DNA of 64,000 nt, from NCBI GenBank assembly GCA_963764925.1, contig CAVXUR010000004.1:425478-489477 (forward strand), given 5' to 3'. Position 1 is the first letter of the stretch. Each line of letters opens with the position of its first letter. This document shows, piece by piece, positions 43,055-61,281 of the stretch. The position numbers were made by a program, and so were the translations under genes. The notes beneath the pieces were generated by a model. The model saw nothing but the letters and a program-made list of their open reading frames with translations, had not been told where the DNA came from and ran no database searches. The DNA comes from an uncultured Acidobacteriota bacterium. GTDB lineage: Bacteria > Acidobacteriota > Vicinamibacteria > Vicinamibacterales > 2-12-FULL-66-21.

Positions 43055-43230
43055 GGTTCAGGGTTCAGGGTTCAGGGTTCAGGGTTCAGGGTTCAGGGTT
43101 CACGGGTTCACGGCCGGGTTCAGGGTGCACAGTTCCTCACAATGCTGCACTAGCCCTCTCGAAACCTTGAACACTGAACGTATGAACCCTGAACCGTGAA
43201 CCTTGAACCATGAACCGTGAACCATGAACC
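43055..43230. repeat. Inverted pair of GGTTCAG / NNTGAAC heptamer arrays (GGTTCAG family, locus 1)
   Basis: The left arm has six perfect ggttcag units (43055..43096) followed by degenerate units to about 43135. The right arm (43161..43230) has about 9 units: cttgaac actgaac ..cctgaac cgtgaac cttgaac catgaac cgtgaac catgaac. The rhomboid ATG (43224) lies in the last unit. Confidence 0.85.
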
Positions 43231-43911: not shown

Positions 43912-44028
43912 GGTTCACGGTTCAGGGTTCACGGTTCATGGTTCAGGTTCAGGGTTCAGGGTTCAAGGGAACTCTGAACCTTGAACGTTGAACCATGAAC
44001 CTTGAACCCTGAACCGTGAACCGTGAAC
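43912..44028. repeat. Inverted pair of GGTTCAN / NTGAACC heptamer arrays (GGTTCAG family, locus 2)
   Basis: There are eight units per arm around the centre gggaact. The left arm is ggttcac ggttcag ggttcac ggttcat ggttca ggttcag ggttcag ggttcaa. The right arm is ctgaac cttgaac gttgaac catgaac cttgaac cctgaac cgtgaac cgtgaac. It fills exactly the gap between the convergent stops at 43908..43910 and 44029..44031. Confidence 0.85.
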
Positions 44029-45038
44029 CTAGGATTTAACCCGTTTCCGAATGTCCTGATTGACCCTGGCGAGCTCGATCATCAGGCGTTCGAACTCCTG
44101 TTGATACTCTGCCGGCTGGAGAAAGCTGCGGCGGACCTTGAGCTCATCGAGATCAGCCTCGAGCGCCGCGCGCTTCTGCAGCAGCTTCAGCAGCACCTCG
44201 TCAGTCGGACGCGCGCCGGGGAGTGGCTCATCGAGATAGACGTGGCTCGAGAGCGATCCATCCTCGCCGTTGCCGCCGGCGTCCCGGCCGACCCCGTCGC
44301 CATTGTCGTCGAGTAGCGCCCGCTCCGTGGAGAGCTGCCCGCGGCGCTGGTAGTGCCGCCGCACTTCGCCGGTCGCCGCGGTGAACGCCTCCCAGATGGA
44401 AATTCGATCGTTCTTGTCGATGTCGGACGCGTCGCTCCTCAGAGCTTTGATGAAGTAGTCGGGAAACACCGTGTCAAACCGTTGCGCCACCGAGTCGGTT
44501 GCGGTGATGACCACCCGGCGCTCGCCAGTCAGCCGCTCGATGAACGGAAAGCTTGCCGACGATGTGTTGACGACCACGACCCGGCCGGGCAGTCCCGCCA
44601 CGAGCTCTGCCCACTGCGCCGATTCCAGATCGGCTCCGACCAGATTGAACTTGGCGTCGACGCCATCGTAGGTGCCGTGGCCGATGAGGACGATGAACAG
44701 GAGGTCGTCGCGCGTCATCGCGCGCCGGATGGTGCTGAGATGTTGGCGGACGTTAGCGGCGGTGGACGCGGTCGACGGGTCGGGCGTATCGGTCAGCACT
44801 TTCAGGTGCGCGCGATCGATCTTCATCCGCTCGACGAGCACGGCCGCGAGATCCCGGGTCCAGCGCGGCGTACTGCGTGGCGTACTCCTGCGCCGCCGCT
44901 CGCGCCCGACGACGATGAGCGCGTAGCGCTCGCCGGCCGCAGGCTGCGTCGCGCGGCAGCGTGACGGAGCACGGCCGCTGCGCGGCTGCGCAGACGCCAG
45001 CCGACCTTCCGCTGAAGCCGGAAGCCACGGTTGGTCAT
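44029..45038 (-). CDS. Legumain/C13-like protein with C-terminal coiled coil (frame broken near the 5' end; start approximate)
   Basis: ERYALIVVG..., LFIVLIGHGTYDGVDAKFNLVGADL, VVVVNTSSASFPFIERL, RVVITATDSVAQRF and ISIWEAFTAATGEVRRHY are followed by LLDDNGDGVG and the coiled coil LLKLLQKRAALEADLDELK. The His-Gly motif is present, but the position where I expect the catalytic Cys reads Ser. Confidence 0.5.
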
Positions 45039-45045
45039 ATCTTGT

Positions 45046-45072
45046 CTTGAACCTGAACCCTGAACCCTGAAC
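45046..45072. repeat. Single-arm CTGAACC-type array (GGTTCAG family, locus 3)
   Basis: cttgaac ctgaac cctgaac cctgaac lies in the 40-nt gap between the VWA gene stop (45078) and the legumain-like start. Confidence 0.7.
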
Positions 45073-45077
45073 GCCTC

Positions 45078-47329
45078 TCACCGGAGCCCCCACGTCCGTC
45101 TCAGACATCCATTCCGCTCCGAGCAGCACCAGTATCGCCGCAAACGACCATCCCGTGTGCCAGAGATCGCGCCGAACGACCATCGCGGCATCCGGCACGG
45201 CCGCCTTTCAGCAGGTCCGCCAGCTCCGGCACCTGATCCTCGGCCAGCACGCGGCCGCCGGACCGTGCGGCAAGCCGCTCGAGGAACGCTCGGTTCACGC
45301 GCGGGTCGGTCATCTCGAGATCGGCCCCGCCGACCAGCACCGACGCGCTGGCCGTTCCGACGAGCGTCGCTCCCCGCCGCACCTCCGCCGACACCTTGAA
45401 AACGCCGGCGTGCTCGGGCCGTGCGTGTGCGACGTAGCTGCCCGTCGTTTCCCCGGGCGGTGTCGGGCGCCGGCCGCGGAGCGACTCGACGCGACCATCG
45501 GGCGACGTGACGCGGACGTCGACGGCGACATTCTTCAGCGGCTCGAACGCGGCGTTCCGGGCGACCACTCGGAGCGGCAGCGTGTCGCCTGGCGCGGCAC
45601 CCGGCTCGACGCTCAGCTGAATCGGATCGCCGGCCGGAAGCGCGAGCCAGCGCAGCGCCTGCTTCCAGAACGTGTCGTACGCGCGATCGGTCGCGGGCGG
45701 CAGCATGCGCCACCGCCACGACGCTTCGCCGGCGAAGACCATCGACCGGCCTTCGCCGAATCGTTGCACCGCGACGAGCGCGCGGGGCGTGCCGCCGGGT
45801 CCGCTCGTCACCGCCAGCACGCTGGCGCCGGGGCGAGGACCGCCGAGCGGCGCGATCGAGGCGAGCGCCGGCACGGCCTCCCATCGCTTCCGCGTGTCGT
45901 CTGCGCCCGCGGCGAGCTGCATGACGGGGTGCGCTTCGCCCGCCGGCGGTGAGCGACACGCGATTCGCCCGCGTGCCACCGACGCGGGCACGACATCGCC
46001 GCCGGCGCACGAGCTCGACCGCGGCGCCGCCGCGATCGTTGAGATCGAGGGCAAGCACGTCCTCGAGCGCAGTGCCTGCGAGCCCCTGGCGCAGGAACGA
46101 CCGCGCGCCGAGCACGAGCAGGCCGCCGCCGCGCTCGCCGACAAAGCTTCGCGTCGCGTCGAGCTGCGCCCTTCGTGAACTGGTGTGCCTCGACGTTGGC
46201 GAGCACCACCGCGTCGTAGCGGAACAGCGCCTCGCGCGTGGCCGGATATCCAGCGGCGAGGCTGTCGCTCCGCGACTGCGCGGCCTGGATGTAGAACGTG
46301 TCGGCGCCCTGCTCGTTCCTGCCCTTGCGCACGACCGAGTCGATCTCGAGGCCGGGATCGGACGCCCAGGCGCGCTTGAGAAAGCTGTGCTCGAACCCGG
46401 GCGCGCCCTCGACGAGCAGGACGCGGCGGGTTCTCGAGGGCGGCTGAACGAGGGTGCTGCGCGCGTTGTTCTCCGGCACGAGCTCGCCTGCCGCGACGGG
46501 CGTCTCGACGGTGTAGACCGTCGGCGCGCCGCGGCCCGGCGACACCTGAAAGACCTCGCGCACGGGCGAGCCCTCCGCCGCCGGCGTCACGCGCCTGACG
46601 TCGATCGGCCGGCCGTTCTCGAGCAGCCGCAGCTCGATCGGCGCGTTCCCCAGCCCATGGCTCACCGCAGACACCGCCAGGTCGACGCGCGAATCGTCCA
46701 GGATCGCTTCGGCGGCCGTCACGCCGAGGATCTCGCGATCCTTGCCGGCGGTGGGCGATCCCGACAGCCAAGCGTGTAGATCGGCGGCCCGCCCTCCGCC
46801 GCGCGCTCGCCCGCGCCGCTCGTGTCCCCGCCGTCCGACAGCAGGACGACGCCCGCGACGCGCCGGCCCCGATAGCGGTCGCGAACCGCGGCGAGCGCCC
46901 CCGCGACGTCGCTTCGCCGCGCCGCGGCGGACAGCTGCGCCGGCGCCACCGGCGCAAGCGCCGTCGCCGAAGCCGAGCACCTCGACGTGAAACTGCGATC
47001 CGAGCGCCGGCAGCAGCCGATCGACGACGATCCGCCGCGCCCGATCGATCCGCCGTCCGCCGCCGGCGGCATCCTCGATGCTCATGCTCCGCGACGTGTC
47101 GACGAGAATCGCGACGATGGCGTCGCGGGCGTCGGCGTCGGTGCCGCGGGCGACCGGGCCGGAGCAGAAAGACGACGAGCGCGAGAAGGGTGACGAAGCG
47201 GAGCGTCACGAGGACCCGGCGCCGCGATGGCGACAGCGTGCGGCGGTTGTAGGCGAGCCACGCGACGAGACCGGCCGCGGCGACGATGAGGGCGAGCGCC
47301 CACCAGGGAAGAGGGTTCGCGAAGGACAC
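45078..47329 (-). CDS. Membrane-anchored VWA-domain protein with GATase1-like middle domain and C-terminal TM (many frame changes)
   Basis: The GTG at 47329 opens (M)SFANPLPWWALALIVAAAGLVAWLAY...LRFVTLLALVVFLLRP (double-TM N-terminus). Then come AIVAILVDTSRSMSIEDA (VWA MIDAS-like), RVLLVEGAPGFEHSFLKRAW...YDAVVLANVEAHQFT, VAVQRFGEGRSMVFAGEASWRWRM, TFWKQALRWLA and the tail DLWHTGWSFAAILVLLGAEWM. Confidence 0.75.
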
Positions 47330-47335
47330 GCCGGC

Positions 47336-50300
47336 CTACTTCTTCCTGGCCAGCGATTCGTAGTATCGGGCGATCAGTTCGTCGATAGTCGTCTGGCACG
47401 CGATCGCTTCCGCCGGCGCTCAGACGATCCTGGAGGCTCTTCCGCGCCGCGCGCGCGATGACCGACGCCTCGTAGCGGTCGAGGGCGGAGTCAACGTCCT
47501 TGCGCAGCGATTCCCACTTCGAGAAAGTCCTGCTTGAAGGCTTCCGTGCCCTTGTCGACGGCACTCCACTCGTGCTGCTCGGGGCGTCGTCCCGCCGAGA
47601 CCGGAGCCGGGCGAGCCGCGCTCGAGGCGGGAGAGCGATTCGCGCGCGCGCCTGCAGCTCCTTCGCGTACTGCTCGCGCAGCCGCTGCGCGTCGTCGCTG
47701 GCGCGCGTTGCCGCCGCGCCGGTCGCCCTCGCGCCTGCGCCCTGCCCTGCCCTGGCGGCCGGCGGCGCTGCTCTGGCGTCGGCCTTCGCGCACCTGGCGT
47801 TCGAGCGCGATCGAGGCGCTCGCGCATCGCGCGCGCCTGATCGAGCTCGCGCGACAAGTCCTCGGCACCGGCAGCGGCGCCGCCCAGCTGATCGACGATC
47901 TGGTCGAGGGCCCGCGCAATCTGCTGTTCGGCCTCGGCCGCTCCCTGGCCGCGGCGCCGGCCTGGCCGCACGTCCGCCGCGCTATCGGCGCCGCTCGCGT
48001 CGCGCATCTTCCTGGCGGTCTCGCGCATGCGGCCGGCGATCTGCTGGCGCGCGAGCTCTCGCGCCGCTGCGGCCGGCTGCGACTCTGCGCGCGAGGCCTG
48101 GCCGACGTCCCGGCGCCGGTGGCTTGTCGGCCGCCCGCGAGCTGCTCGGCCGTCCGCTGCAGCGCATCGACGCGATCGGCGAGCTTGTCTTTCTCGCCCG
48201 GAGAGCCGCCGCCACGCATCGGCGTTCGCCGCGATCGGTGCCCTTCGCGAGCCGCGCCGCCTCGCCGGCGATGCGCCGCTGCTCGTCGGCAATCTGCTGC
48301 GCCTCGAGGCGCACCTCGCCCGGCGGCGCGCTGCTGCGCCTCGGGATGTCGCGGCGCATCTGCTGTTCGAGCCGGCGGAGGCCGGCCGCGGCGCGCTCGC
48401 CGCGGTCGGCCGCGGTCGCCGGCGACTGTCGCTGCAGTTCGCCCGCCGCGCCTCGCATCTGCTCGGCCGCGTCGCGCATCGCCCGCTGCCAGCAGGATTC
48501 TGCTGGGGCCCGGCGCCGCGCTGCGCTTGGCGGCCTTGCCGGCCCATCTGACGCGCCAGCTCCTCGGCCTGCTGACGGAGCGCCTCCTGCTCCCGCGTCA
48601 GCTTCTCGAGCTGACGCTTCAGCTCGTCCGCCGACGGCGTCGGGCGTCGGCGAGCTCGCGTTGCCGCCGGCTCAGCTCTTCCTGCCGCCGGGCAAGGTCG
48701 CGAATCCGGTCGAGCGCGCTCTCGCCGGCTCCTGCTGGTCGGCGCGCGTCTCGGTCTGCGACCGCGTCTCGTAGTTGGTGCGCTGCTGCCGCTGCAGCTC
48801 CTTGTCGAAGAGCGCCGAGAGATCCTGCCCCTGCCGGCCGAGCCCACCCATCGAGGCTCCGGCCTGCTGCGCCACCTCGCGCCTGCGCACTTCGGCCTGC
48901 GCCTGCAGCAAACCCTGGAGCGCCGCCATCTCGTGCGGCAGCGCCTCGCCGGTCCGCTGGCCCTCCAGCTGATCGATGGCCCGCGTCATCGCCGAGATCG
49001 CCGCGCCCACCGGATCCGGACGCGTCCCGACGCCACCACGAAGCTGACGCGGAGGCGTCACCTGCTGCGGAAAGCGGATCGGCCCGCGGCCCCGTCCGGT
49101 GCGCGACGCAATCTGCTCCGCGCGACCGCTGCAGCTCGGCCTGCGCCGCCGCAATGGCCGTGATGTCGCCGCCGATCGGCCCGCGCCAGACGCGGCGCGC
49201 CGCTCGATGTTCCACGTGGCGTTGATGATCTCTTTCTGCGCGGCGACGAGGGTTTCGATCTGCTCGCTCGCCATGCCGGACATCGCCTGGCTCTGCGCCA
49301 GCACGAACTCTTCGGAGAACGGCCGGACCTCGAGGAAGAACATGTCGCTTCTCGTCTCGGTCGACCGCTTGCCGCGCCCGACGTCGCGCGCGCGAGCGTA
49401 GTAGGTGATCACGTCACCCGGCTGAACGCCAAGATCCTCGGCCGCGAGCGTGTGCGTCGCCGGACCTCGCGAGGTCGCTGCCGCTGGCGCGCGGCGAACG
49501 GAACGACCTTCGGTGCCCGCCCTGCCACGGCGTAGACCAGCTCGAAGCGCGAAATGCCGTGATCGTCTTCGGCCCGCGCCTCGATGGCGACCTCCTCGAG
49601 CGGCGTGATCTGCTGGTCGCCCGCGGGCCGGAGGATGCGGACATCCGGCGGCCGGTCGTCCATCACGCGCAGAAAGTACTCCGTGTCGTCCGGCCGTCCG
49701 GAGACCATCGCGATCAGTGAGTCCGATGCGATACGAGTCGTCTCGCGCGAGGACGAGGTCGCCTTCGAGCACGCGATCGCCAGTCCGGCCGCAGAACCAC
49801 GTGCCGGTCGGCCGCCGCCAGCGGCGGCCATCCGCGAACACCATCTGGCCGGATGCGATCGGCTTGTCGGTGTGGACGCGCACGTGAACCTTCGTGCCCG
49901 CCGGCGCGTAGATGTCGCCGCCGTCGCGTTCCTCACGCGGCGGCAGGTTGGCGAAGGCCGGATACTCGTAGCGCAGATCGATCCGCGTCGACCCGTGCGC
50001 CGACGAGCGCGGTCACGGTGTAGTCCGCCGAGCGCCTCGAGCCGGCCGTGACGCGATACTGGAACGTTCGGTCGATCGATTCGAACGACGAACTGAAAGC
50101 CCTCGCCGTCGGGCGTCATCGCGACGGTGCGCGCTCTCGGTCCGGCCTCGACGGTCAGGCGCGGCGTGAAACGCGTCAGGAACCTGCTGCCCGCGCGCAC
50201 CGATGCCCGGATCGTCAGCGGCTGGCCCAGCGGGCACACGGGCATCGCCGGGAAGGACCTCGACGAGAATCGATTGAGGAAAGATCGTGATCCACGCCGT

Positions 50301-50840
50301 CTCCGATGCCCTGGTCAGCATCGGCCACGCGAGCGCGACGGACAGCGGCGAGGACGATGACGCCGGCCGCCGCCGACACCGCAGCGCGTCGCAGCGCACG
50401 CGGCCGTCACGATGCTCGCGGCACTGACAGCCTCGAGGCGGCGTACCGCCGATTCCATGACGAGGCCGCGAAAATCCCCGGCCTCGCCTGATGCCCCGGC
50501 GTCCACGGCGCTCACGAGCACGTCGTCGAGCGGCGGAACATCGGCGCGTGTCGCCACGCGCTCTTCGATGAAGCGGGCGATCTGCCGATCGCTCGGCCTG
50601 TCCCGGCAGTGCCACGCGGTCACGACGATCGCCGCCAGCCCCAGCCAGCGCAGGCGGCGACCGCCAGGAGGGTCAGCGCTCCATCGTCTGGCGCCAGCCA
50701 CATCGACGAGGCCGGCAGCAGCCAGGATCGGCGCCGCCGCGAAGGCGGTGGACGCGGCCGATGGCGCGCAGGACGACCTCGGCGCGCCATCGGCGGCGAA
50801 CGCTCAGGAGCAGCGAGCGGAGCTGGTCGTGGACTGTCAC
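47336..50840 (-). CDS. DUF4175-like large membrane / coiled-coil protein (very many frame changes)
   Basis: The GTG at 50840 overlaps the upstream stop (GTGA). The N-terminus reads TVHDQLRSLLLSVRRRWRAEVVLRAIG...LRWLGLAAIVVTAW (TM). The middle reads LAAEDLGVQPGDVITYYARARDVGRGKRSTETRSDMFFLEVRPFSEEFVLAQSQAMSG...LVAAQKEIINATWNIERR. Long Arg/Gln/Ala/Glu coiled-coil segments follow (EELKRQLEKLTREQEALRQQAEELARQMG). The tail reads PDDYRR.IARYYESLARKK-TAG (47336..47338). Confidence 0.7.
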
Positions 50841-52743
50841 GCGCGTCCTACTACCGATTCTGCAACCAGTGTAGCAATCAACAGGACCAGGCCGTACTGC
50901 CAATAACTCTGGCGCGACTCGGTCTGCTGGGCCTGGATCTCGGCCGCTTGCGAGGCCTTCGCTGCGATCGGGGCACCATGGCCGTCGAAGTCCGCGGCGT
51001 CGCATCCGGTCGAGCGCGCTTTCGCGCGTGTCGACATTGACCGCAAACGGTCGATTGTCCGCGACTTCGATAGACACCTGGGACGGGTGGCGTTCCCGGC
51101 GGGCGCCTGGGCGACGGTGTAGTCACGCGTCTGCCGGCGATCGCCTCCCACCTGTCCCACATGGGCCACGTAGCGCAGGGCTTCGATCGCGAACGGGACA
51201 AACGCCGGGTGCAGTGGAAAGTCGTTCCATCGCCGGTCGACGATCGGAGGCAAAGAGCACGACGCGCCCCTGTCCAAGCGCACGCTCGAGTAAGCGCAGG
51301 CGAGCCATTCGAGAAGCGCGCGACGATGGACCAGCCGTCTGGCGACGACGCGCCACGCGCGGTCGAACCGCACCTGGCCAAGGTTCGCGGCCAGGGCGCC
51401 AAATGGACGGAAGATCGGATGGCGCAGGTCGGTCGCGGCAAGCGTCAATGGTCCGCTCTGCTCGACGGCGCTGCAACGCCGGCTGCCATCCCGTCATCTC
51501 GGCGAGCACCGCGGGCTCGAGATCGGACGCCGCGGCGACGAACAAGCCTCCACCGTCCCTCACGTACGTCATCAGCCGTTCCCGCGTCGCACGCTCGAGG
51601 CCGCGGGTCGACAGCAGCGCCACCCCGCGATGAGTTCGACAGCTGGTCCGCCGTGACCCGGCGAAGCGAGCGCCTGACACGACCTCGACGTCTTCGCCCG
51701 ACGAGGTGCTGAGCGCCCGCGACACATAGAGCGCCGCCGGCCTGCCCGCTGGCCTTGTATACCGTCGGCTCGTCGGCGCCGACGATCGAGCACCTTCGCG
51801 GCGAGGCGCCGCCGAGCGCGACGAACCAGGCATTGTCGGCCGGCAACCCCTCGGTGTCGTCGATCACGACCTGAGCGTCCCGGCTTCAGGGGCGCGCCAT
51901 GCGATCGACGCTTCGATCGTCGCGCCGGGCGGTGCCGCATAGTCCGTCGCCGCCACCTCACGCCCGTCAAGGAGCGCCCGGACAGGGCCGGTCCGCGCGC
52001 TGGCGCCTCGATTTCGGATTGCTGCCACGATCCGGTCGCCATCGACCCTTGCGGCAGTCACCGCGACGTTACTGAGAACGCCGTCGTTCACGACGCCTTT
52101 GGCGTCTCGGTTCTGAACGTCCACGACGGTCAGGTCCCACCCTGCCGGAAGCGCCGACGACGACTCCCCTTCCCAGCCTGCACGCTGCAGATCGGTGACG
52201 ATCACGAGCCGGCCAGGCGCGCCGGCTGCAAGCTCGACCGCCTGCTGGAAGACCGGCGCGTAGCGCGTCGCGCCGAATCCCGGCGTCAAGCCCGTCGAGC
52301 GCGGCGCGCGCGTCGCCGGCCCCGCCCGGCGCGACGAGCACGTCGGCGCGATCGTCGAACGCCACGACAGCGCAACGCGCTCGCCACTCGCCGCCTGGTC
52401 GATCGCCTCGACGCGCCAGCGCCAGTGCCCGCGGAAAAACACCGGGCGCGCCCATGCTGTACGACCGGTCAATCGCGACGACCCGCACTGGCGCAGGCGC
52501 GACGCCCTGCACGTACGGCCTGGCAAAGGCAGCGGCGAGGAGCAGGAGCGCGGCGACGCGCGCGGCGAGCAGGAGCAGATCCCGAAGTCGCCGTCGCTCG
52601 GCACGCTCGACCGGCGCGCGGCGCAGCAGGCGAACGGCCGTGAACGGCACCTCCGGGGCCACGTCGCGCCGCAGGAGGTGCAGCACGACGGGAATCGCGA
52701 TGGCCAGGGCGCCGATGAGAAAGGCTGGATAGAGAAACGACAT
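50837..52743 (-). CDS. BatA-type (TIGR02226 N-terminal double-TM) VWA protein with GATase1-like C-terminal domain (many frame changes)
   Basis: MSFLYPAFLIGALAIAIPVVLHLLRR..., VRVVAIDRSYSMG, VVAFDDRADVL, LVIVTDLQRAGW, YVRDGGGLFVAAASD, RWNDFPLHPAFVPFAIEALRYV and the C-terminal TM WQYGLVLLIATLVAESVVGRA-stop. Confidence 0.8.
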
Positions 52744-53656
52744 TCACTTGCGCCGGGCGCGCGCCGCGAGGTACCCGAGCAACGCGAAATCGAGCGGCTT
52801 CGAGGTGTCGAGCAGCCGGTAGTCGATGCCGGCACTCCGCAGCTCCCGCTCGTATCGCCCTCGCAACCCGTCGAGCGCCTGCAGGTATGCGGAGCGGATG
52901 CTCGTCGGTTCCGCCGTCACTTCGTCCGCGCTCTCGACGTCCTTGAAACGCGATGAGCCGTGGAACGGGAACGTCAGCTCGTTCGGATCGAGCACCTGAA
53001 ACACGATGACGTCGTTGCCGCGGGACTTGAGGTGCCTGAGCCCCTTGATGATCGGCTCAGGATCGTCGAGCAGGTCCGAGATGAGCACCACGAGGCTGCG
53101 CCTGACGAGCGCCTCGGCCAACTGCTGTAGCGGCCGCGGGACATCCGATCGCCGTCCGGGCTCCAGCTGTTCGAGGCCGATGAGCAGGCTATGCAGGTGT
53201 CCCCGACGCGCGCGTGGCCGGCAGCCTGAGCCGGATCACGTCGTCGAACGCCATCAGACCGGTCGCGTCCCGCTGGCGGTTCATCAGAAACGCCAGCGAG
53301 CCGGCGAGCACCGAGCCGTAGGCGAGCTTGCTCATCGCCGCCGCGCCGCGGTAGGCCATCGACGCGCTGATGTCGAGCAGCAGGTGGCATTCGAGGTTGG
53401 TCTCCTCCTGGAACTGCTTGACGTAGTGCCGATCGCTGCGCGCGTAGACTTTCCAGTCGAGCGTGGACAGATCGTCGCCTGGGAGGTACTCGCGGTACTC
53501 GGCGAACTCGACGCTGAAGCCTTTGTAGGGACTCCGATGCAGTCCGGACAGGAATCCTTCGACGACCGTCCGCGCCTTCAGCTCCATCGTCCCCAGCCGC
53601 GCGATGACGGCCGGATCGAGAAACCGCAGCTCGCGCGCCCCGGGAGTCGTGGGCAT
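52744..53656 (-). CDS. DUF58-family protein (frame change near 53120..53190)
   Basis: [59 protein letters not shown]. The C-terminal piece reads [37 protein letters not shown]. Its stop abuts the BatA-type ATG (TGAATG). Confidence 0.9.
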
Positions 53657-53660
53657 CGGG

Positions 53661-54709
53661 CTACAACCCGCTCTGCGGCAGGGGCACGGCCTCGAGCAGG
53701 CGCTCGACTATCGTGTCCGGCGTGACGCGCTCGGACTCGGCGTAGAAGTTGGGAATGACGCGGTGCCTGAGCACGGGCAGCGCCAGCGCCTGAATGTCGG
53801 CGACCGACACGTGGTAGCGCCCGTGGATGAGCGCGCGAGCCTTTCCCGCCAGGATCAGAGCCTGTGATGCGCGCAAACCGGCGCCCCACTTGACCCATTC
53901 GGTCACAAACGCATGACCGCCCTGCCGGCCAGGGCGCGATGCGTCGACGAGCCGGACCGCATAGCGCGCGATCTCCTCGGCGACGATGACCTGCCGCACC
54001 AGCTGCTGGATCTCGAGAATCTCGGCACCGCTCAACACACGCTCCGGCGTATGCGTCGTCACGCCCGTCGTTTGCGTGACGACCCGGACCTCTTCGTCTT
54101 CGGCGAGGTAGGTCATGACGATGTTGAACATGAAGCGATCGAGCTGCGCCTCTGGCAGCGGGTAGGTGCCCTCGAGCTCGATGGGATTCTGCGTCGCGAG
54201 CACGAAGAACGGACGCTCGAGCGGATACGTCCGGCCCGGCCGCCGTGACGTGGTACTCCTGCATCGCTTCGAGGAGCGCCGCCTGCGTTTTCGGCGGCGT
54301 CCGGTTGATCTCGTCGGCGAGGATGATCTGCGCGAAGATCGGCCCGGTCACGAACCGGAGAGCGCGGTGTCCGTTGGCCTCGTCGAGCACCTCGGTGCCG
54401 GTGATGTCGGCGGGCATGAGGTCGGGCGTGAACTGGATCCGCTTGAACGACAGGTCGAGAATCTGCGCGACTGTCTTGATGAGCAGCGTCTTGGCGAGTC
54501 CCGGCACGCCGGTGATCAGGCAGTGCCCGCCGGTGAAGAGCGCGATGAGGACCTGATCGATGACCGCATCCTGCCCGACGATGACCTTGCGGATCTCGGA
54601 CAGGATCCGCTCGCGGCCGAGCGCGACGCGTTGGGCGACCGCCGCAATGTCTCCGGAAGTGCGTCTCTGTCGTCGCGGTCGATGGCCGGGTGGTGGTCTG
54701 CGGATTCAT
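53661..54709 (-). CDS. MoxR-family AAA+ ATPase (at least 2 frame changes)
   Basis: The Met at 54709 opens the protein. It has [18 protein letters not shown] (Walker A), [40 protein letters not shown] (Walker B) and [25 protein letters not shown]. Confidence 0.95.
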
Positions 54710-54735
54710 CTCGTTTGTGAGCGGGGTCAGCGGCA

Positions 54736-55524
54736 TCAGTGGGTCAGCGAATAGACGATTTCGTTGATCTGCATCCGATAGGCCTGGGCGGTGAACCGGA
54801 CGTAGCCCGGGTAGTCGGCCGCGTTCGACCATTCCCAGCCATCACCCATGTCGGTGTTCCAGTTGATGAGGACCATCGCGCGCCCGTCGTCGTCTTCGAT
54901 CGCGCGCAGGCGAGCCACAAAGCCGCCCTTCTCCCACGTGCGGCCAGCCAGGAACGACCCGAGCCCCGGGGTCTGCGGATACTCGTCGATCTTGTAGAAG
55001 CAGTTGAAAATCGGATGCTGCGGCGGCAGATCGACAATGGTCCGATCCGGGAAGATCCGCTTCATCTGGCGCTCGAGGTTCGCCCATTCAATCGGCCCGT
55101 GGAAATCGTCGAAGGTCAGGGTGCCGCCGCGCAGCAGGAACTCGCGCAGAATGGCGACCTCGTTGTCCTTGGGAATCCAGGTGCCCGGTTCGACCAGATA
55201 GATCCACGGATACGTGAAGAGCGCCGGGTCGTCGAGCGCGACGACGACGGGCTCGTTGACCTGAATCGAGGTGACCGTCTTGACGCGTCTCGAGAGATTC
55301 TGCTCGGCTGCCGGGTAGTCGATCGTCCAGCATTCGTCGTAAGTGTCGCAGCCGGAGAGGCCCGGCAACTTGGAGCCGTCGTAGCGAATGCGCGCGAAAG
55401 TCCACTGCAGTCCGGCGAACTGCGCGTTCGGCCGCGTCGCGTCCTGGGCCGCGGCATCGCCTGGCGTGACCGCTCCCGCCGTCGCCCAGAGGAGCGCGGC
55501 GCCTGCCCCGAGCAGGACCGCCAT
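54736..55524 (-). CDS. DUF4159-domain secreted protein
   Basis: LQWTFARIRYD, WTIDYPAAEQNLSRRVKTVTSI, LFTYPWIYLVEPGTWIPKDNEVAILREFLLRGGTLTFDDFHG and HPIFNCFYKI. The frame is intact. The start may lie about 30 nt further upstream if an indel is present. Confidence 0.85.
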   Translation of the reverse strand: MAVLLGAGAALLWATAGAVTPGDAAAQDATRPNAQFAGLQWTFARIRYDGSKLPGLSGCDTYDECWTIDYPAAEQNLSRRVKTVTSIQVNEPVVVALDDPALFTYPWIYLVEPGTWIPKDNEVAILREFLLRGGTLTFDDFHGPIEWANLERQMKRIFPDRTIVDLPPQHPIFNCFYKIDEYPQTPGLGSFLAGRTWEKGGFVARLRAIEDDDGRAMVLINWNTDMGDGWEWSNAADYPGYVRFTAQAYRMQINEIVYSLTH

Positions 55525-55551
55525 TCGCCTCGAGACTCGGCCGACGCGTCG

Positions 55552-58178
55552 TCATCGCAACCCGGGCCTGACTTTGGCCGGCGGCGGCTGGCCACCGTCG
55601 ATGGCCTTCAGCAGAAGCTCCTGCGCCCGCTCGAAGCTCGGCGCAATCTCGAGCGCCGCGAGCGCCTCACGCTTCGCGTCAGCGGCCCGGTTCGCGAGCA
55701 GGTAGCTTTCGGCGAGGTCGCAGTGGGCAGTGGCGCGATCGGGCGGACCGGTCGCGAGCGCCATCTTGAACTCGCGGATCGCCACGGTGGCGTCGCGCGA
55801 TCGCATCGCCACGCTGGCCCAGTCCCGTGTGGCCGGGCGCGTCGAACGGATCGACCTCGACAATCCGATCGTAGGCAAAAGCGAGGTTGGGTTCGTCGTT
55901 GGCCGTCGCGGCGAGCTCGGCCAGCCGGCGCGCCGCGTCGATGGCGTTGTGATCGCTTGCGAGCAGGGCCCGGTACTCCTTGAGGGCACGCGCCTTGTCG
56001 CCCACCTGCTCGGCAAGGCGACCCATGATGGCGTGCGGGCTCTCGGCGCCGGTCGCCATCGGCACGAGCGCCGCTGCCTTCTCGAGCGGTTCGAAAGCGG
56101 CCTTGTCGCCCTGCTTGGCGAGCGCCGCGCCGAGCGTCAGCTGGGCGCGATAGCTGCCTGGCCGTTCCCCAGCCGCCGTCTTCAGGGCGGCAATGTCGCC
56201 GGTCTGCCGTTCGTCAGCAGGGCCGCCCGGTTTGGCCGGCTTCGCGACGTCGCGCAGCGCCGCCCGGACAGCGCTGAAGCGCGCGTCGAGCATCTTGTCG
56301 AACGTCGCCTGCAACTCGTCGAGCGAGATGCCAAGTCCCTTGCTGATCGCAGCGTCCCCCTCGGCACCCTCCCCATAGACGCGTACCAGCGTGTTGAGCG
56401 CCGCCTGTCCGCGCGTGGCGACGATGTGTTCGACGAGCAGCGACGCCTGGTAGTACGAGAGCGCGATGGTGTCCGGCTTGGTGAAGCCGGAATTCAGATC
56501 GCGGAGCTTGAGCACCTGATCGCGCTCGAGCGCCAGGGCGAATGGAACTTCCATCTCGCTGCCGCCACGAAGGCTTCTCGCGGCCCTCTTCGTAGACTGA
56601 AACACCTTCGGTCAGCCACCGCGGCACTCGCTGGTTCGACATCTGCAGCGTGATGACGTGGGCCAGTTCGTGCCAGAGCGTCGCCTGCCACGAGAACGTG
56701 CCGGGCGGCTTGGCTCTGGGCGAGTCCATGCTCACGACGCGGCCGAAGCAGGCGCCGAGCGCGCCGACAAGTCCAGGCAGACCGAGGTTGCGGACCGCGA
56801 AGTCATCGTGGATCGGGAAAATCTCGATGAGGATCGGCCCCTTCGGCGTGAACTGGTAGGTGGCCGACATTTTCTTCAGCGCTTCCTGAGCCAGCGGAAC
56901 CGCGTACTCGCGCAACACTCTCGTTTCGTTTGGATCGAACTTGAGCACGAGATCGCCGTCGCGGACGACGTCGAACTTCTCCAGCTTATCGAGCAGATCG
57001 AGCAGGTTGACGGTGACGCGGTCGAACGGGAAGACCTTGAACACTCGGTCGAGCACACGGCGGGCGTCGGCCTCGTCGCCGGTCCTCATCAGGTGCAGCC
57101 CCAGATCGCTTTGCGCGGGGACATTCGACGGAGAGAGTTCGATGGCGCGCCGTGTCAGCGCGACGGCCTCGTCGAAACGGTAGAGGCGCGCCGCGAGATC
57201 GCCGGCGACGCGATACACCTCGCCGAAGTTTGGGTTGATGGCGAGCACGCGCGCCGTCTCGGCGTCGAACGTCGCCTTGTCGTCGCGGACGTAGGCGATC
57301 GCGCCCAGAAGCGCCCTCGCGTCGAGATGCGACGGATTGGTCTTGAGGACGCGCTCGATCCGTTCGCGCGCCGCGTCGTAGCGGGTGTTGTCGAGGTCCA
57401 GCCCGGCGAGGAAGAGGTGCGCGTCCGCAAGGTCCGGGTCGATCTTGAGGGCTTCTTCGGCCGCAGCCGCGGCCATCGGAGGATTCTCGCCGGCAATCGT
57501 TTTTGCGACGCCAAGATGCGCCGGGGCCCAGTCTGCGGCGGCCTTGATGACGATCTGAAATGACTTCAGCGCTTCGGGCAGATTGTCGGTCTCGAGGAAC
57601 AACTCACCAAAGGCGGTCTCAGCCGCAGGATCACCGCTCCGCACGGCCGCCTTGTAGAGCGCCTCCGCGTCGCGAATCTGGTCGAGCGCCCGCGCCGCGC
57701 GGGCAGCACGAAAGAGCGATTCGGCGTCGCCGGTCTTCAGACCGCTCCCGAACACCCGGTTGAGATGCTCGGCCGCTGCGGTCTGGCGTCCGAAGTGGCT
57801 CTGCAGCAACAGTCCAAGCTCGAGCGCCGCCTCGCCCGTCGGGTTCGTCGTCGCACCGGCCTCGAGCAGCTTCAACGCCTCGTCGTAATTGCCGCGAGAC
57901 GCCTCAAGACTCGCCAGCACAGCCGCGCGGTCGGGATCGCCGGCCGGCCGCGCTTTGGCCAGCGCCTCGGCCTCCGTTCGCCGGCCTCTGGCCGACAACC
58001 GCCGCGCCTGCTGGATGAACGTCTCTGGCGCCTGAATGGCCGCAAGAGACGTTTCTGCGCCAAAAACAGCGCCGAGCGATAACGATACGCTCTCCCGCAC
58101 CGCGGGCACTGCCGCAAGTCCACAGACGAGCAGCACTGCCACCACCGACATCCGCCTCACACTTCGGAGGTGTCGCAT
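55552..58178 (-). CDS. TPR-repeat protein with central MA-clan (HExxH) peptidase-like domain (several frame changes)
   Basis: The N-terminus MRHLRSVRRMSVVAVLLVCGLAAV is followed by about 400 aa of TPR-like repeats. Then come ...IFPIHDDFAVRNLGLPGLVGALGACFGRVVSMDSP...TLWHELAHVITLQMSNQRVPRWLTEGVSVYEE (HExxH plus a downstream Glu). More TPR follows to the stop at 55552 (DATVAIREFKMALATGPPDRATAHCDLAESYLL). Confidence 0.75.
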
Positions 58179-58249
58179 CACACTGTTCGGATTATAGAAC
58201 ACGAGGCTTGATGGATCAGACGCGCTTCGCTCGACGATAGTCGGGCGGG

Positions 58250-58625
58250 CGAAACGGAGAGGACGGAGGTAACGGCACGATCTTCACCACGGAGCAACGG
58301 AGCTGAAATGAGCGGGAGACGCACGGAGGCTGTCACGCTGCATTCACGCTCAACCAGTTTTTCGCGCGAAGTCGCGTCGCTGAGAGGCAGTACATAGAGA
58401 CTGCTTGGACCGCGCGAAGCGCGGTTGGGATGATGCGAGGGACCGGGATCGCAAGCACCCGTGGTGCTTCAGAGGGTGTTTGCGATCCCGGTCCCTCGCA
58501 TCATCCCCACGCCGGCCAAAGGCCGGCGTCCAAGCGGTCTGCAGCTCGACAGCCTCCGTGCGTCTCCGTGCGCCCCGTGCCTCCGTGGTGAAAACCGTGA
58601 ACTCCGTCCGCTTCGTCAGCAGCTA
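58250..58625. repeat. Composite structured repeat, copy 2: nested-hairpin core flanked by inverted CACGGAG/CTCCGTG arrays
   Basis: The core is 58399..58539. The outer stem is gactgcttgga/tccaagcggtc. The hairpins are ccgcgc-gaa-gcgcgg and cgccggcc-aaa-ggccggcg, and there is a roughly 35-bp long stem gggatgatgcgagggaccgggatcgcaag.../...ttgcgatcccggtccctcgcatcatccc. The flanks gagacgcacggaggctgtc (58314..58334) and gacagcctccgtgcgtctc (58549..58567) are inverted. The orientation is opposite to copy 1. Confidence 0.7.
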
Positions 58626-60609: not shown

Positions 60610-61131
60610 CTATCGTGATCGCAGACCGAGCGCCCGCTCCTCGACGCGCACGCGCGCGACGAGCAGCGCGCCAAACGCGGCGAGCGACAGCGCGCCAGCC
60701 ACCGGCGCTCGCGCGAGCAGCGCAAACCCGACGAGCTCGCCAACGACGGCGACGTAGTTGGGATGCCGCAGGAGGCGGTAGGGCCCGCGCAGCGTCCGCG
60801 CCGATCCAGGCGGCACGAGCACGCGAAACGTCCACCGGTCGCCGAGCGTCCCGATCGCCCAGTACTTCAGCGCTTTGGCGCTGATGAAGACCAGACCGCC
60901 GGCGAGAGCCGTCCAGCCGAAGCCGCGCCACGCACCCAGCGCCTCCACCACCATCGCCAGAAAGCAGAGCGGATAGGCGACCTGCATGAGCGCATAGACG
61001 TCGTCGGCCGGCTCGACCGCACCAGCGGCGCGCAACGCGCGCTCATTGGCCGCCGAGCGGCGAGCCTCAAGGAGCATCGGGACAAACCCGACGGCCAACA
61101 GGACTGCGATCGAAATTGGTTCAGGGTTCAT
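60610..61131 (-). CDS. Isoprenylcysteine carboxyl methyltransferase (ICMT/PEMT)-family membrane methyltransferase
   Basis: GLVFISAKALKYWAIGTLGDRWTFRVLVPPGSARTLRGPYRLLRHPNYVAVVGELVGFALL carries the RHPNY motif. The frame is intact. The first codons, ATG AAC CCT GAA CC, are repeat units. Confidence 0.85.
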   Translation of the reverse strand: MNPEPISIAVLLAVGFVPMLLEARRSAANERALRAAGAVEPADDVYALMQVAYPLCFLAMVVEALGAWRGFGWTALAGGLVFISAKALKYWAIGTLGDRWTFRVLVPPGSARTLRGPYRLLRHPNYVAVVGELVGFALLARAPVAGALSLAAFGALLVARVRVEERALGLRSR

Positions 61132-61281
61132 GGTTCAGGGTTCAGGGTTCAGGGTTCAAGCAGGTTCAAGGTTCAAGGTTCAGAGTTCACGGTCCAACGT
61201 TCTGAGAACCGCGACTCGGAACCTCCTGAACCCTGAACCTTGAACCTGAACCGTGAACCCTGAACCCTGAACCCTGAACCC
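61118..61281. repeat. Inverted pair of GGTTCAN / CCTGAAC arrays (GGTTCAG family, locus 4)
   Basis: The left arm is ggttcag ggttcat ggttcag ggttcag ggttcag ggttcaa ..ggttcaa ggttcaa ggttcag agttcac (61118..about 61202). The right arm is cctgaac cctgaac cttgaac ctgaac cgtgaac cctgaac cctgaac cctgaac (about 61225..61281). It fills the gap between the flavoprotein stop (61284) and the ICMT start (61131). Confidence 0.85.

Follow-up and report, generated by a model that had tools for sequence, protein, structure and literature searches.

The block at positions 44029–58178 of the window analysed here, a 64,000-nucleotide stretch of contig CAVXUR010000004.1 from an uncultured Acidobacteriota bacterium, carries eight genes, all on the minus strand, which encode amongst others a MoxR AAA+ ATPase, a DUF58 protein and two von Willebrand factor A (VWA) proteins. 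Our best joint explanation, to which we give a probability of about 0.6, is that these genes form an operon of soil Acidobacteria that is universal in the Vicinamibacteria, intact, probably co-transcribed and a composite of two modules, with a mechanism of envelope remodelling. The Bat operon was described in 1999 and, to our knowledge, no molecular function has since been assigned to MoxR-DUF58-BatA operons, although they are widespread. The new facts of most use in this respect are the two-module structure and two gene fusions found in other lineages, which together give concrete hypotheses as to which of the proteins touch one another.

Gene content and layout of the operon

The junctions were read directly from the sequence, and the genes, in the order in which they would be transcribed, are as follows.

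55552–58178, minus strand: gene 1, predicted secreted TPR gluzincin (Peptidase_MA_2; HELAH-x16-E), ~875 aa
54736–55555, minus strand: gene 2, predicted secreted DUF4159 protein, 272 aa, highly conserved
53661–54709, minus strand: gene 3, MoxR AAA+ ATPase (AAA_3, AAA_lid_2), 348 aa, predicted cytoplasmic
52744–53656, minus strand: gene 4, DUF58 protein, VWA-like, 303 aa, predicted cytoplasmic
50837–52743, minus strand: gene 5, BatA-type protein with a double-transmembrane hairpin (TIGR02226), a VWA domain and a ThuA/DUF4350-like region, 628 aa
47336–50840, minus strand: gene 6, DUF4175 protein with three predicted transmembrane helices, Ig/FnIII-like domains and long helices, ~1156 aa
45078–47329, minus strand: gene 7, gene 5 paralogue with a double-transmembrane hairpin, VWA, GATase1_like and an Ig-like region, 737 aa
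44029–45038, minus strand: gene 8, predicted secreted clan-CD-fold protein with a C-terminal helical hairpin, ~335 aa

This is the order proposed in an initial annotation made from the letters alone, and the four junctions quoted there (TGAATG, GTGA, a 6-nt gap and a 4-nt gap) are exact. Gene 1 starts with the ATG at 58178 and shares an ATGA overlap (55555–55552) with gene 2; the DUF4159 stop at 54736 is followed, after a 26-nt gap, by the MoxR ATG at 54709, and the MoxR TAG at 53661, after a 4-nt gap (53657–53660), by the DUF58 ATG at 53656. Genes 4 and 5 meet at TGAATG (52746–52741) and genes 5 and 6 at GTGA (50840–50837), whilst the DUF4175 TAG (47336–47338) is separated by 6 nt (47330–47335) from the GTG start of gene 7 at 47329. 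Gene 7 ends with the TGA at 45078, 39 nt ahead of the gene 8 ATG at 45038, and gene 8 stops with TAG at 44029–44031, such that all spacers in the operon are 0–39 nt long or 4-nt overlaps.

The block has a G+C content of 66–73% and chance open reading frames (ORFs) are abundant on both strands. When the minus strand is read in three frames the recognisable protein segments jump frame repeatedly, DUF4159 (ORF 54739–55524) being the sole gene with a nearly clean frame. Two long ORFs were rejected as gene models: ORF 44029–45198 (GTG start, 389 aa) as gene 8, which has a spurious N-terminus, gene 8 itself starting from the ATG at 45038, and the 742-aa ORF 45101–47329 as an intact gene 7, which holds 11 frame-changing indels and is open partly by chance via an out-of-frame Arg-rich stretch. 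In DNA of ~70% GC, long ORFs can stay open out of frame. Approximately five indels scramble the first ~60 codons of gene 8, and the public gene call in the same frame (P0123, 359 aa; P numbers denote proteins and L numbers loci) has ~80 scrambled N-terminal residues.

Origin of the frame breaks

The initial annotation had described the block as frameshift-ridden, which it is, and had considered that genuinely broken frames would rule out a functional system. Frame shifts were placed by alignment to close relatives, a frame plot of G+C at third codon positions being too noisy for placement. The references for indel calls were L001–L003, ENA long-contig assemblies with ~92% DNA identity to the window, whilst two loci of a relative further removed, L004 (on a 4.7-Mb contig) and L005, supplied a fully intact operon. 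This intact reference encodes a TPR and Peptidase_MA_2 protein of 866 aa, DUF4159 of 268 aa, MoxR of 346 aa, DUF58 of 303 aa, BatA with VWA of 622 aa, a 1160-aa protein, a GATase1_like protein of 737 aa and an eighth protein of ~310–360 aa. In a four-way alignment of the window with L001–L003, ~65 frame-changing insertions and 14 deletions were found only in the window, the other sequences having a handful each. Single inserted G or C bases make up the great majority of the window indels, of which only 21 of 86 fall within homopolymers, and the indels concentrate in the GC-richest part of the block (47.3–52.4 kb). Genes 1–7 contain 71 frame-changing indels in all (2, 1, 2, 1, 18, 36 and 11 respectively) and gene 8 about five, giving a total of ~76; those in genes 1 to 4 are +1 indels at 56563 and 55815 (gene 1), 55532 (gene 2), 54661 and 54239 (gene 3) and 53217 (gene 4).

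Once these indels were removed, by projection onto the intact reference frames, genes 1–7 were open, with no internal stop in ~4,300 codons, and their products showed 88–99% amino-acid identity to those of relatives. The window and L001 differ mostly at third codon positions (4/0/21 substitutions at positions 1/2/3 in MoxR and 61/36/201 in gene 7), and Nei-Gojobori dN/dS values were 0.03–0.21 across genes 1–7, with MoxR at 0.029. The genes encoding DUF4175, BatA, the gene 7 protein and the TPR-peptidase are also split, at other positions, in L001–L003 and L088, all from the same ENA series (ERZ250394xx–395xx), which suggests that the long-read metagenome assemblies of this series have a systematic indel weakness in GC-rich stretches. 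Public sequencing runs were also screened for the window sequence, the best run containing 7% of the sampled words.

From these comparisons the frame breaks appear to be indel errors of a noisy long-read metagenome assembly and not decay. A decaying pseudogene operon, with frames that are truly broken, would account for the ~76 indels and for the scrambled N-terminus of the source's own gene 8 call, but is extremely improbable. A lineage really carrying ~76 frameshifts would be expected, at the same divergence, to show no purifying selection and to have gained stop codons by substitution, whereas the corrected frames have neither in-frame stops nor raised dN/dS and their substitutions are in excess at the third position; furthermore, read errors typically show such a bias towards inserted single bases, and in close relatives of this assembly series the breaks fall elsewhere. 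In GC-rich parts of long-read metagenome-assembled genomes (MAGs), abundant frameshifts can thus mimic pseudogenisation.

Conservation and probable co-transcription

A DUF4159 profile search returned 80 species-representative genome loci, and 85 related loci were compared in all. The order of genes 1 to 7 is identical in all 85, as far as each contig reaches, with DUF4159 being a stand-alone protein of ~270 aa, predicted to be secreted, in the window and in every one of these loci. Across the loci, DUF4159 identity to the close relative P0001 is 56–99%, whilst gene 1 identity to the window falls to ~44%. Gene 2 has ~2,000 homologues, which among the 120 matches listed are 69–96% identical, the named ones being Vicinamibacterales. 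Gene 8 follows gene 7 in 41 of the 41 loci with at least 300 nt beyond gene 7 and also in two further loci centred on gene 8, where the operon ends with it and a convergent gene, for a rhomboid or an amidohydrolase, comes next. Genes 1 and 8, for which the initial annotation had left co-conservation with the core to be established, therefore accompany it in every testable Vicinamibacteria locus.

The labels of the 80 profile-found loci are mostly Vicinamibacteria or Acidobacteriota, and the few MAG titles that name other taxa look like probable mis-binning. Loci L046, L075, L064, L052 and L080, with titles naming Bifidobacteriaceae, Betaproteobacteria, Candidatus Sulfopaludibacter and Acidobacteriaceae, have the Vicinamibacteria-type operon with a DUF4159 that is 61–65% identical. 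The profile scan of genomes gave loci only from Vicinamibacteria or from such doubtfully labelled MAGs and hence did not show spread across phyla; the Azospirillum and Gemmatirosa examples below came from a plasmid collection.

We consider the operon to be probably co-transcribed because its genes are closely spaced and because a promoter-like motif is conserved ahead of gene 1, as follows.

58214–58223, minus strand: -35-region candidate GCGTCTGATC, 17 nt upstream of TATAAT
58191–58196, minus strand: TATAAT, -10-like hexamer, 12 nt before the gene 1 ATG

The element GCGTCTGATC is kept in the window, L001–L003, L011, L006, L007 and L009 and nearly kept in L005, and across species GCGTCTGATC-N17-TATAAT sits 12–13 nt ahead of the gene 1 ATG. 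In species with a gene 1 protein 64–97% identical to that of the window, GTGTTCTATAATC is found at a fixed distance from the ATG. This conserved upstream motif suggests a single promoter with a very short leader, which would give a nearly leaderless mRNA.

Two modules in one operon

The initial annotation had read all eight genes as one machine. Whilst the eight are indeed co-conserved in Vicinamibacteria, comparison with other lineages indicates that the operon is a composite, in which genes 2–7 are the core cassette and genes 1 and 8 an accessory pair with an existence of its own. Two proteins of the gene 8 family, P0254 (1156 aa) and P0251, consist of a full-length gene 1 orthologue, an Ala/Thr/Ser linker and a gene 8 domain, the gene 1 part (TPR, zincin, TPR) being 40% identical to that of L004 over 850 residues. 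A metagenome scan recovered the intact 1156-aa fusion ORF in a 29.5-kb contig (L091), where genes for a ketoacyl synthase, FAD_binding_3 and ICMT/PEMT lie upstream and FHA-GAF-SpoIIE and HMGL-like genes downstream. These are the genes that flank the eight-gene operon in Vicinamibacteria, so that the fusion occupies the same syntenic site, yet none of genes 2–7 was found within 10 kb of it. Genes 1 and 8 are also fused in L090, and in the more divergent contig L092 they are adjacent and separate.

Conversely, the core is found without the pair on a chromid of Azospirillum brasilense (L087), which encodes MoxR, DUF58, a 911-aa BatA_N...DUF4159 fusion and a GATase1_like double-transmembrane protein, with no TPR-zincin, DUF4175 or gene 8 homologue at this locus. 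Genes 2–7 are on this evidence a widespread MoxR cassette in enlarged form, and either the cassette was inserted between the members of the pair in the ancestor of the Vicinamibacteria or it was deleted, with in-frame fusion of the pair, in the sister lineage. The accessory pair is therefore cleanly separable from the core, its two genes being fused in a sister lineage. The Azospirillum fusion ties DUF4159 to the BatA-type ectodomain and, as the two are separate proteins in the window, provides a second link to that ectodomain. A stand-alone DUF4159 homologue (35% identity) occurs on plasmid 1 of Gemmatirosa kalamazoonensis (L086, NZ_CP007129.1, 182577–183212) with no MoxR, DUF58 or BatA homologue within 14 kb, and DUF4159 is thus not always tied to a MoxR cassette.

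Proteins of the core cassette

Domains were called with Pfam and NCBIfam on the intact orthologues from L004, and the calls agree with the labels of the initial annotation, those for DUF4175 and GATase1_like being marginal. Gene 2 matches DUF4159 (PF13709) at 151–155 bits; a solved relative of this domain (4I66, Hoch_4089) has no function assigned. Gene 3 matches AAA_3 (212.7 bits) and AAA_lid_2 (51 bits) and has the Walker A motif GxPGxAKT at residue 67, whilst gene 4 matches DUF58 at 163 bits. Gene 5 matches BatA (PF07584, 61 bits), TIGR02226 (65.5 bits) and VWA_2. The MoxR-DUF58-VWA core is thus of the Bat/MRP kind that had been proposed for it. The match of gene 6 to DUF4175 is weak (33 bits against a cut-off of 27.3) and covers profile positions 182–323 only, and that of gene 7 to GATase1_like is 26.4 bits for the whole protein and 27.8 bits for its C-terminal fragment, around a cut-off of 27.

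The metal ion-dependent adhesion site (MIDAS) motif DxSxS is present at residue 95 of DUF58, residue 92 of BatA and residue 77 of the gene 7 protein. In profile comparisons with hhalign, BatA and the gene 7 protein aligned over ~510 columns (99% probability, E 7.8e-18) and DUF58 and BatA at 93.6% probability, which shows that BatA and the gene 7 protein are paralogues and that DUF58 is related to both via the VWA fold. Possession of two paralogous VWA/GATase1-like ectodomain proteins places a constraint on models of MoxR-DUF58-BatA function. The same method found no relation of DUF4159 to the GATase1-like region of gene 7 or to any other component, and we make no claim of a GATase1-like fold for DUF4159; Pfam may place this domain in the GATase1-like clan. 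A literature search gave no paper linking DUF4159 or DUF4175 to MoxR.

Hydropathy profiles point towards the envelope, as had been suggested: two N-terminal transmembrane helices are predicted on BatA and on the gene 7 protein and three on DUF4175, and genes 1, 2 and 8 have signal-like N-termini. DUF58 is without a membrane segment, and in MoxR no more than a borderline hydrophobic stretch, at the Walker A region, was seen. The loop between the BatA helices is Arg-rich and should therefore be cytoplasmic, which would make the VWA ectodomain periplasmic; a periplasmic VWA topology has been shown experimentally for the BatA-like protein BB0173 of Borrelia (PMC5700661). Hydrophobic C-terminal segments of BatA and the gene 7 protein, read by eye as was this orientation, may be further transmembrane anchors. 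Conservation across the BatA loop, inspected for an acidic docking residue, gave an uninformative pattern. An AlphaFold2 (AF2) model of DUF4175 (pLDDT 76) has three transmembrane helices with a ~60-residue helical insert, predicted to be cytoplasmic, followed by three tandem Ig/FnIII-like domains (residues 189–501) and then ~630 residues of long R/Q/E-rich helices.

The gene 1 zincin and the gene 8 caspase-fold protein

Genes 1 and 8 had been put forward as two putative proteases, of which only the first has stood up. The L004 orthologue of gene 1 matches PF13485 (Peptidase_MA_2, 56 bits) and TPR, and the motif WHELAHV...WLTEG (HExxH-x16-E, with a Glu ligand) is kept in essentially all loci, making this HExxH zincin, as judged from its motif, the only credible protease of the operon. 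Gene 8 matched no Pfam family at E<=1 and scored 16 bits against an NCBIfam caspase model with a cut-off of 140, the sequence hints to metacaspases being weak. Its AF2 model (pLDDT 72) retrieved metacaspases (E 2e-6), SAVED-CHAT, GPI8/PIGK, caspases and C11 in Foldseek searches at probability 1.0, with modest template modelling (TM) scores of 0.4–0.55. The model thus supports a clan-CD (caspase/legumain) fold, and the earlier label 'legumain-like' is fair at the level of fold but does not extend to the catalytic Cys. The histidine of the GHG motif (His138) is invariant, whilst the catalytic loop reads VNTSSAS, with no Cys, in the close homologues examined; Ser180 shows 98% conservation across 103 diverse full-length representatives of the family. 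Because the catalytic-loop Cys is absent we do not count gene 8 as a cysteine protease, and it would be either a pseudoprotease or a Ser/His variant.

The gene 8 family comprises 2,898 clusters at 50% identity (E<=1e-3), and this analysis brings to notice a large Cys-less legumain/caspase-fold family that is without a Pfam model. A distant member, P0323, does possess a loop Cys and scores above the Pfam cut-off for Peptidase_C13. In another, P0266 (613 aa), a gene 8-type domain (residues 14–261) is followed by a MacB-like periplasmic core (PF12704), which points either to a genuine fusion with a permease of the ABC type or to two genes called as one.

Proposed function and alternative explanations

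By analogy with characterised MoxR/VWA pairs, the operon most likely serves to remodel envelope proteins at the expense of ATP. The AAA+ ring of MoxR would pair in the cytoplasm with the soluble, VWA-like DUF58, whilst the inner membrane would hold the two double-transmembrane VWA paralogues (BatA-type and GATase1-like) together with the three-transmembrane DUF4175. The Arg-rich loops of both VWA proteins would be cytoplasmic and their VWA/GATase1-like ectodomains periplasmic, the three Ig-like domains and long helical stalk of DUF4175 would reach into the periplasm, and secreted DUF4159 would associate in the periplasm with the BatA-type protein. The accessory pair would contribute a secreted TPR-gluzincin cooperating with a Cys-less caspase-fold protein. 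In NorQ/NorD, which by analogy serves as the only structural and mechanistic template for MoxR/VWA pairs, a finger of the VWA protein is inserted into the AAA+ pore, and the client is remodelled as the ring twists and stretches a linker (PMC13036017). Similarly, ATP hydrolysis by MoxR would pull or twist DUF58 as the VWA adaptor, the force from which would be relayed to cytoplasmic loops in the three membrane proteins and alter the assembly state of the periplasmic MIDAS ectodomains and the DUF4175 stalk. The altered ectodomains would bind, release or position envelope proteins, and the zincin, held or regulated by its caspase-fold partner, would process clients or ectodomains. The expected physiological role, envelope maintenance, is borrowed from the Rhizobium leguminosarum MoxR protein RL3499, for which a reported role in membrane integrity and cell morphology is cited in PMC3893208; growth on TY medium was impaired for both RL3499 and RL3500 in transposon sequencing (PMC5118466).

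A different possibility is that one transcript carries two unrelated functions, genes 1 and 8 forming a self-contained periplasmic peptidase module and genes 2–7 an independent insert. This is unlikely, but is the natural reading of the pair being adjacent (L092) or fused (L090, L091, P0254, P0251) with no cassette within 10 kb, and of a cassette-type core without the pair in Azospirillum. What speaks for a connection is that the bracketing of the cassette by the pair is kept in all 85 Vicinamibacteria loci, at gene 1 identities down to ~44%, that the ATGA overlap of genes 1 and 2 is likewise kept and only one promoter-like motif is conserved, and that all products other than the cytoplasmic MoxR and DUF58 appear to be targeted to the membrane or periplasm. 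A closer coupling of the modules can also be envisaged, namely energy-coupled periplasmic proteolysis or quality control in which the MoxR/DUF58 motor gates the VWA proteins and DUF4175 stalk and so delivers clients to the TPR-zincin with its obligatory Cys-less clan-CD partner (from a family of ~2,900 clusters at 50% identity with invariant His and Ser, either a new Ser/His variant or a pseudoprotease regulator); we regard this as a rather speculative proposal.

That the operon encodes a dedicated cofactor-insertion or enzyme-maturation chaperone for one specific enzyme, in the manner of NorQD, CoxDE, CbbQO or RavA-ViaA, is suggested by the pairing of MoxR with a VWA/MIDAS protein that defines such systems, yet no candidate client enzyme gene was found in or beside the operon at any locus and most of the protein mass is predicted to be membrane-anchored or periplasmic rather than cytoplasmic, which makes this explanation improbable. 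We also consider it very improbable that the operon serves in anti-phage defence or conflict as a MoxR-vWA 'ternary' system with a caspase-like effector, notwithstanding the 35.8 bits that MoxR reaches against bpMoxR, a model derived from ternary conflict systems, and the presence of a caspase-fold protein and a metallopeptidase. We give it little weight because PADLOC models had no match among the eight proteins (0/8) and because the operon behaves like a housekeeping locus and not a patchy island, with a fixed syntenic position in every sampled species and strong purifying selection; in addition the caspase-fold protein is predicted to be secreted and is without the Cys.

Several points weigh against the envelope-remodelling explanation that we prefer. 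The membrane orientation was read by eye using the positive-inside rule and not taken from a topology predictor, and co-transcription draws on spacing and on an upstream motif, GCGTCTGATC-N17-TATAAT, that a simple sigma-70 scan did not call. Contacts between the modules and complex formation are inferred only, as are the direction of force, the substrates and the phenotype. The occurrence of the pair without the cassette shows that the accessory module is separable, and the modules may be independent and merely co-transcribed, whilst gene 8 is without the nucleophile expected of a clan-CD peptidase. Foldseek searches with the DUF4175 model returned generic Ig/FnIII arrays only. The probable equivalence of the core to RL3499-RL3502 draws on the Azospirillum locus. 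Finally, the phenotypes of Bat-type operons are inconsistent, with stress phenotypes in Riemerella and none in Leptospira biflexa, where deletion of bat gave no oxidative-stress or morphology phenotype (PMC3557215).

Relation to known systems

The nearest counterpart is the four-gene MoxR operon of the alphaproteobacterium Azospirillum (L087), in which MoxR (49% identity), DUF58, the BatA_N double-transmembrane protein and the GATase1_like double-transmembrane protein are in the same relative order as in the window. It differs in that DUF4159 is the C-terminal domain of the BatA-type protein, whereas in the window it is a separate protein, predicted to be secreted, encoded ahead of moxR, and in that three further proteins, the 1156-aa DUF4175, the TPR-zincin and the caspase-fold protein, are encoded only in the window. 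The R. leguminosarum genes RL3499-RL3502 (cmdA-D) are probably of this four-gene MoxR type. The membrane and morphology role reported for RL3499 fits the predicted localisation of the products of the window operon.

The more distant Bat (BatI) operon of Bacteroides fragilis, present also in spirochaetes, Francisella and Riemerella, shares with the window an MRP-type MoxR at its head, DUF58 next, and then BatA_N with VWA membrane proteins and a TPR protein. However, the TPR protein of the window carries a zincin domain, unlike that of the Bat operon, no BatD or SH3-containing BatE was found among the Pfam matches of genes 1–8, and the Bat domain sets in the published descriptions consulted are without DUF4159, DUF4175 and GATase1-like. 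The NorQ-NorD, RavA-ViaA, CoxD-CoxE and CbbQ-CbbO systems likewise combine an AAA+ MoxR ring with a MIDAS VWA partner, but have one VWA partner and a defined soluble or membrane enzyme client, whereas the window operon has three VWA-fold proteins, two of them with predicted periplasmic ectodomains, and no client enzyme gene. Gene 8 shares its fold and His with clan CD peptidases (C14, C13 legumain/GPI8 and C11), from which it differs in having no loop Cys, no Pfam match and an extra C-terminal helical hairpin. AdvA, a cell division protein of Acinetobacter baumannii with DUF4175 and two transmembrane helices, shares with gene 6 the DUF4175 label and an N-terminal transmembrane region; in this comparison, which is by label only, gene 6 is far larger and has Ig-like domains and a helical stalk.

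Repeats and flanking genes

Two repeat elements border the operon.

43912–44029, no strand assigned: heptamer-unit palindrome, (GGTTCAN)n and its inverse, adjoining the gene 8 stop, with convergent genes on either side
58254–58616, no strand assigned: nested inverted repeat of ~360 nt, within the 466-nt spacer upstream of the operon

The 118-nt palindrome after gene 8 has a predicted RNA fold of -84.8 kcal/mol (z = -13.3) and is probably a transcript-end hairpin. It belongs to an intergenic family of (GGTTCAN)n followed by (NTGAACC)n that is present in the window at 43055–43230, 43912–44029 and 61118–61280, the family having 31 pattern matches against none expected by chance. A half-copy lies in the gene 7/8 spacer (45054–45073) and is found also in L001, whilst upstream of gene 1 in L004 and L005 a different unit, (TTACCAG)n, is present. 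The nested repeat at 58254–58616 has arms of 37, 28, 28 and 22 nt, the 28-nt core arm being single in the window, and in the equivalent upstream spacer of L001 an IS110-family transposase gene has been inserted. An Rfam search of the region gave no match.

The flanks of the operon are stable across L001–L005, L088, L089 and L091, with Lon, ICMT, ketoacyl synthase, FAD_binding_3 and PEMT/ICMT genes upstream and rhomboid, FHA-GAF-SpoIIE phosphatase, HMGL-like and citrate synthase genes downstream. In some loci a DUF6311 glycosyltransferase-like gene is also present on the upstream side.

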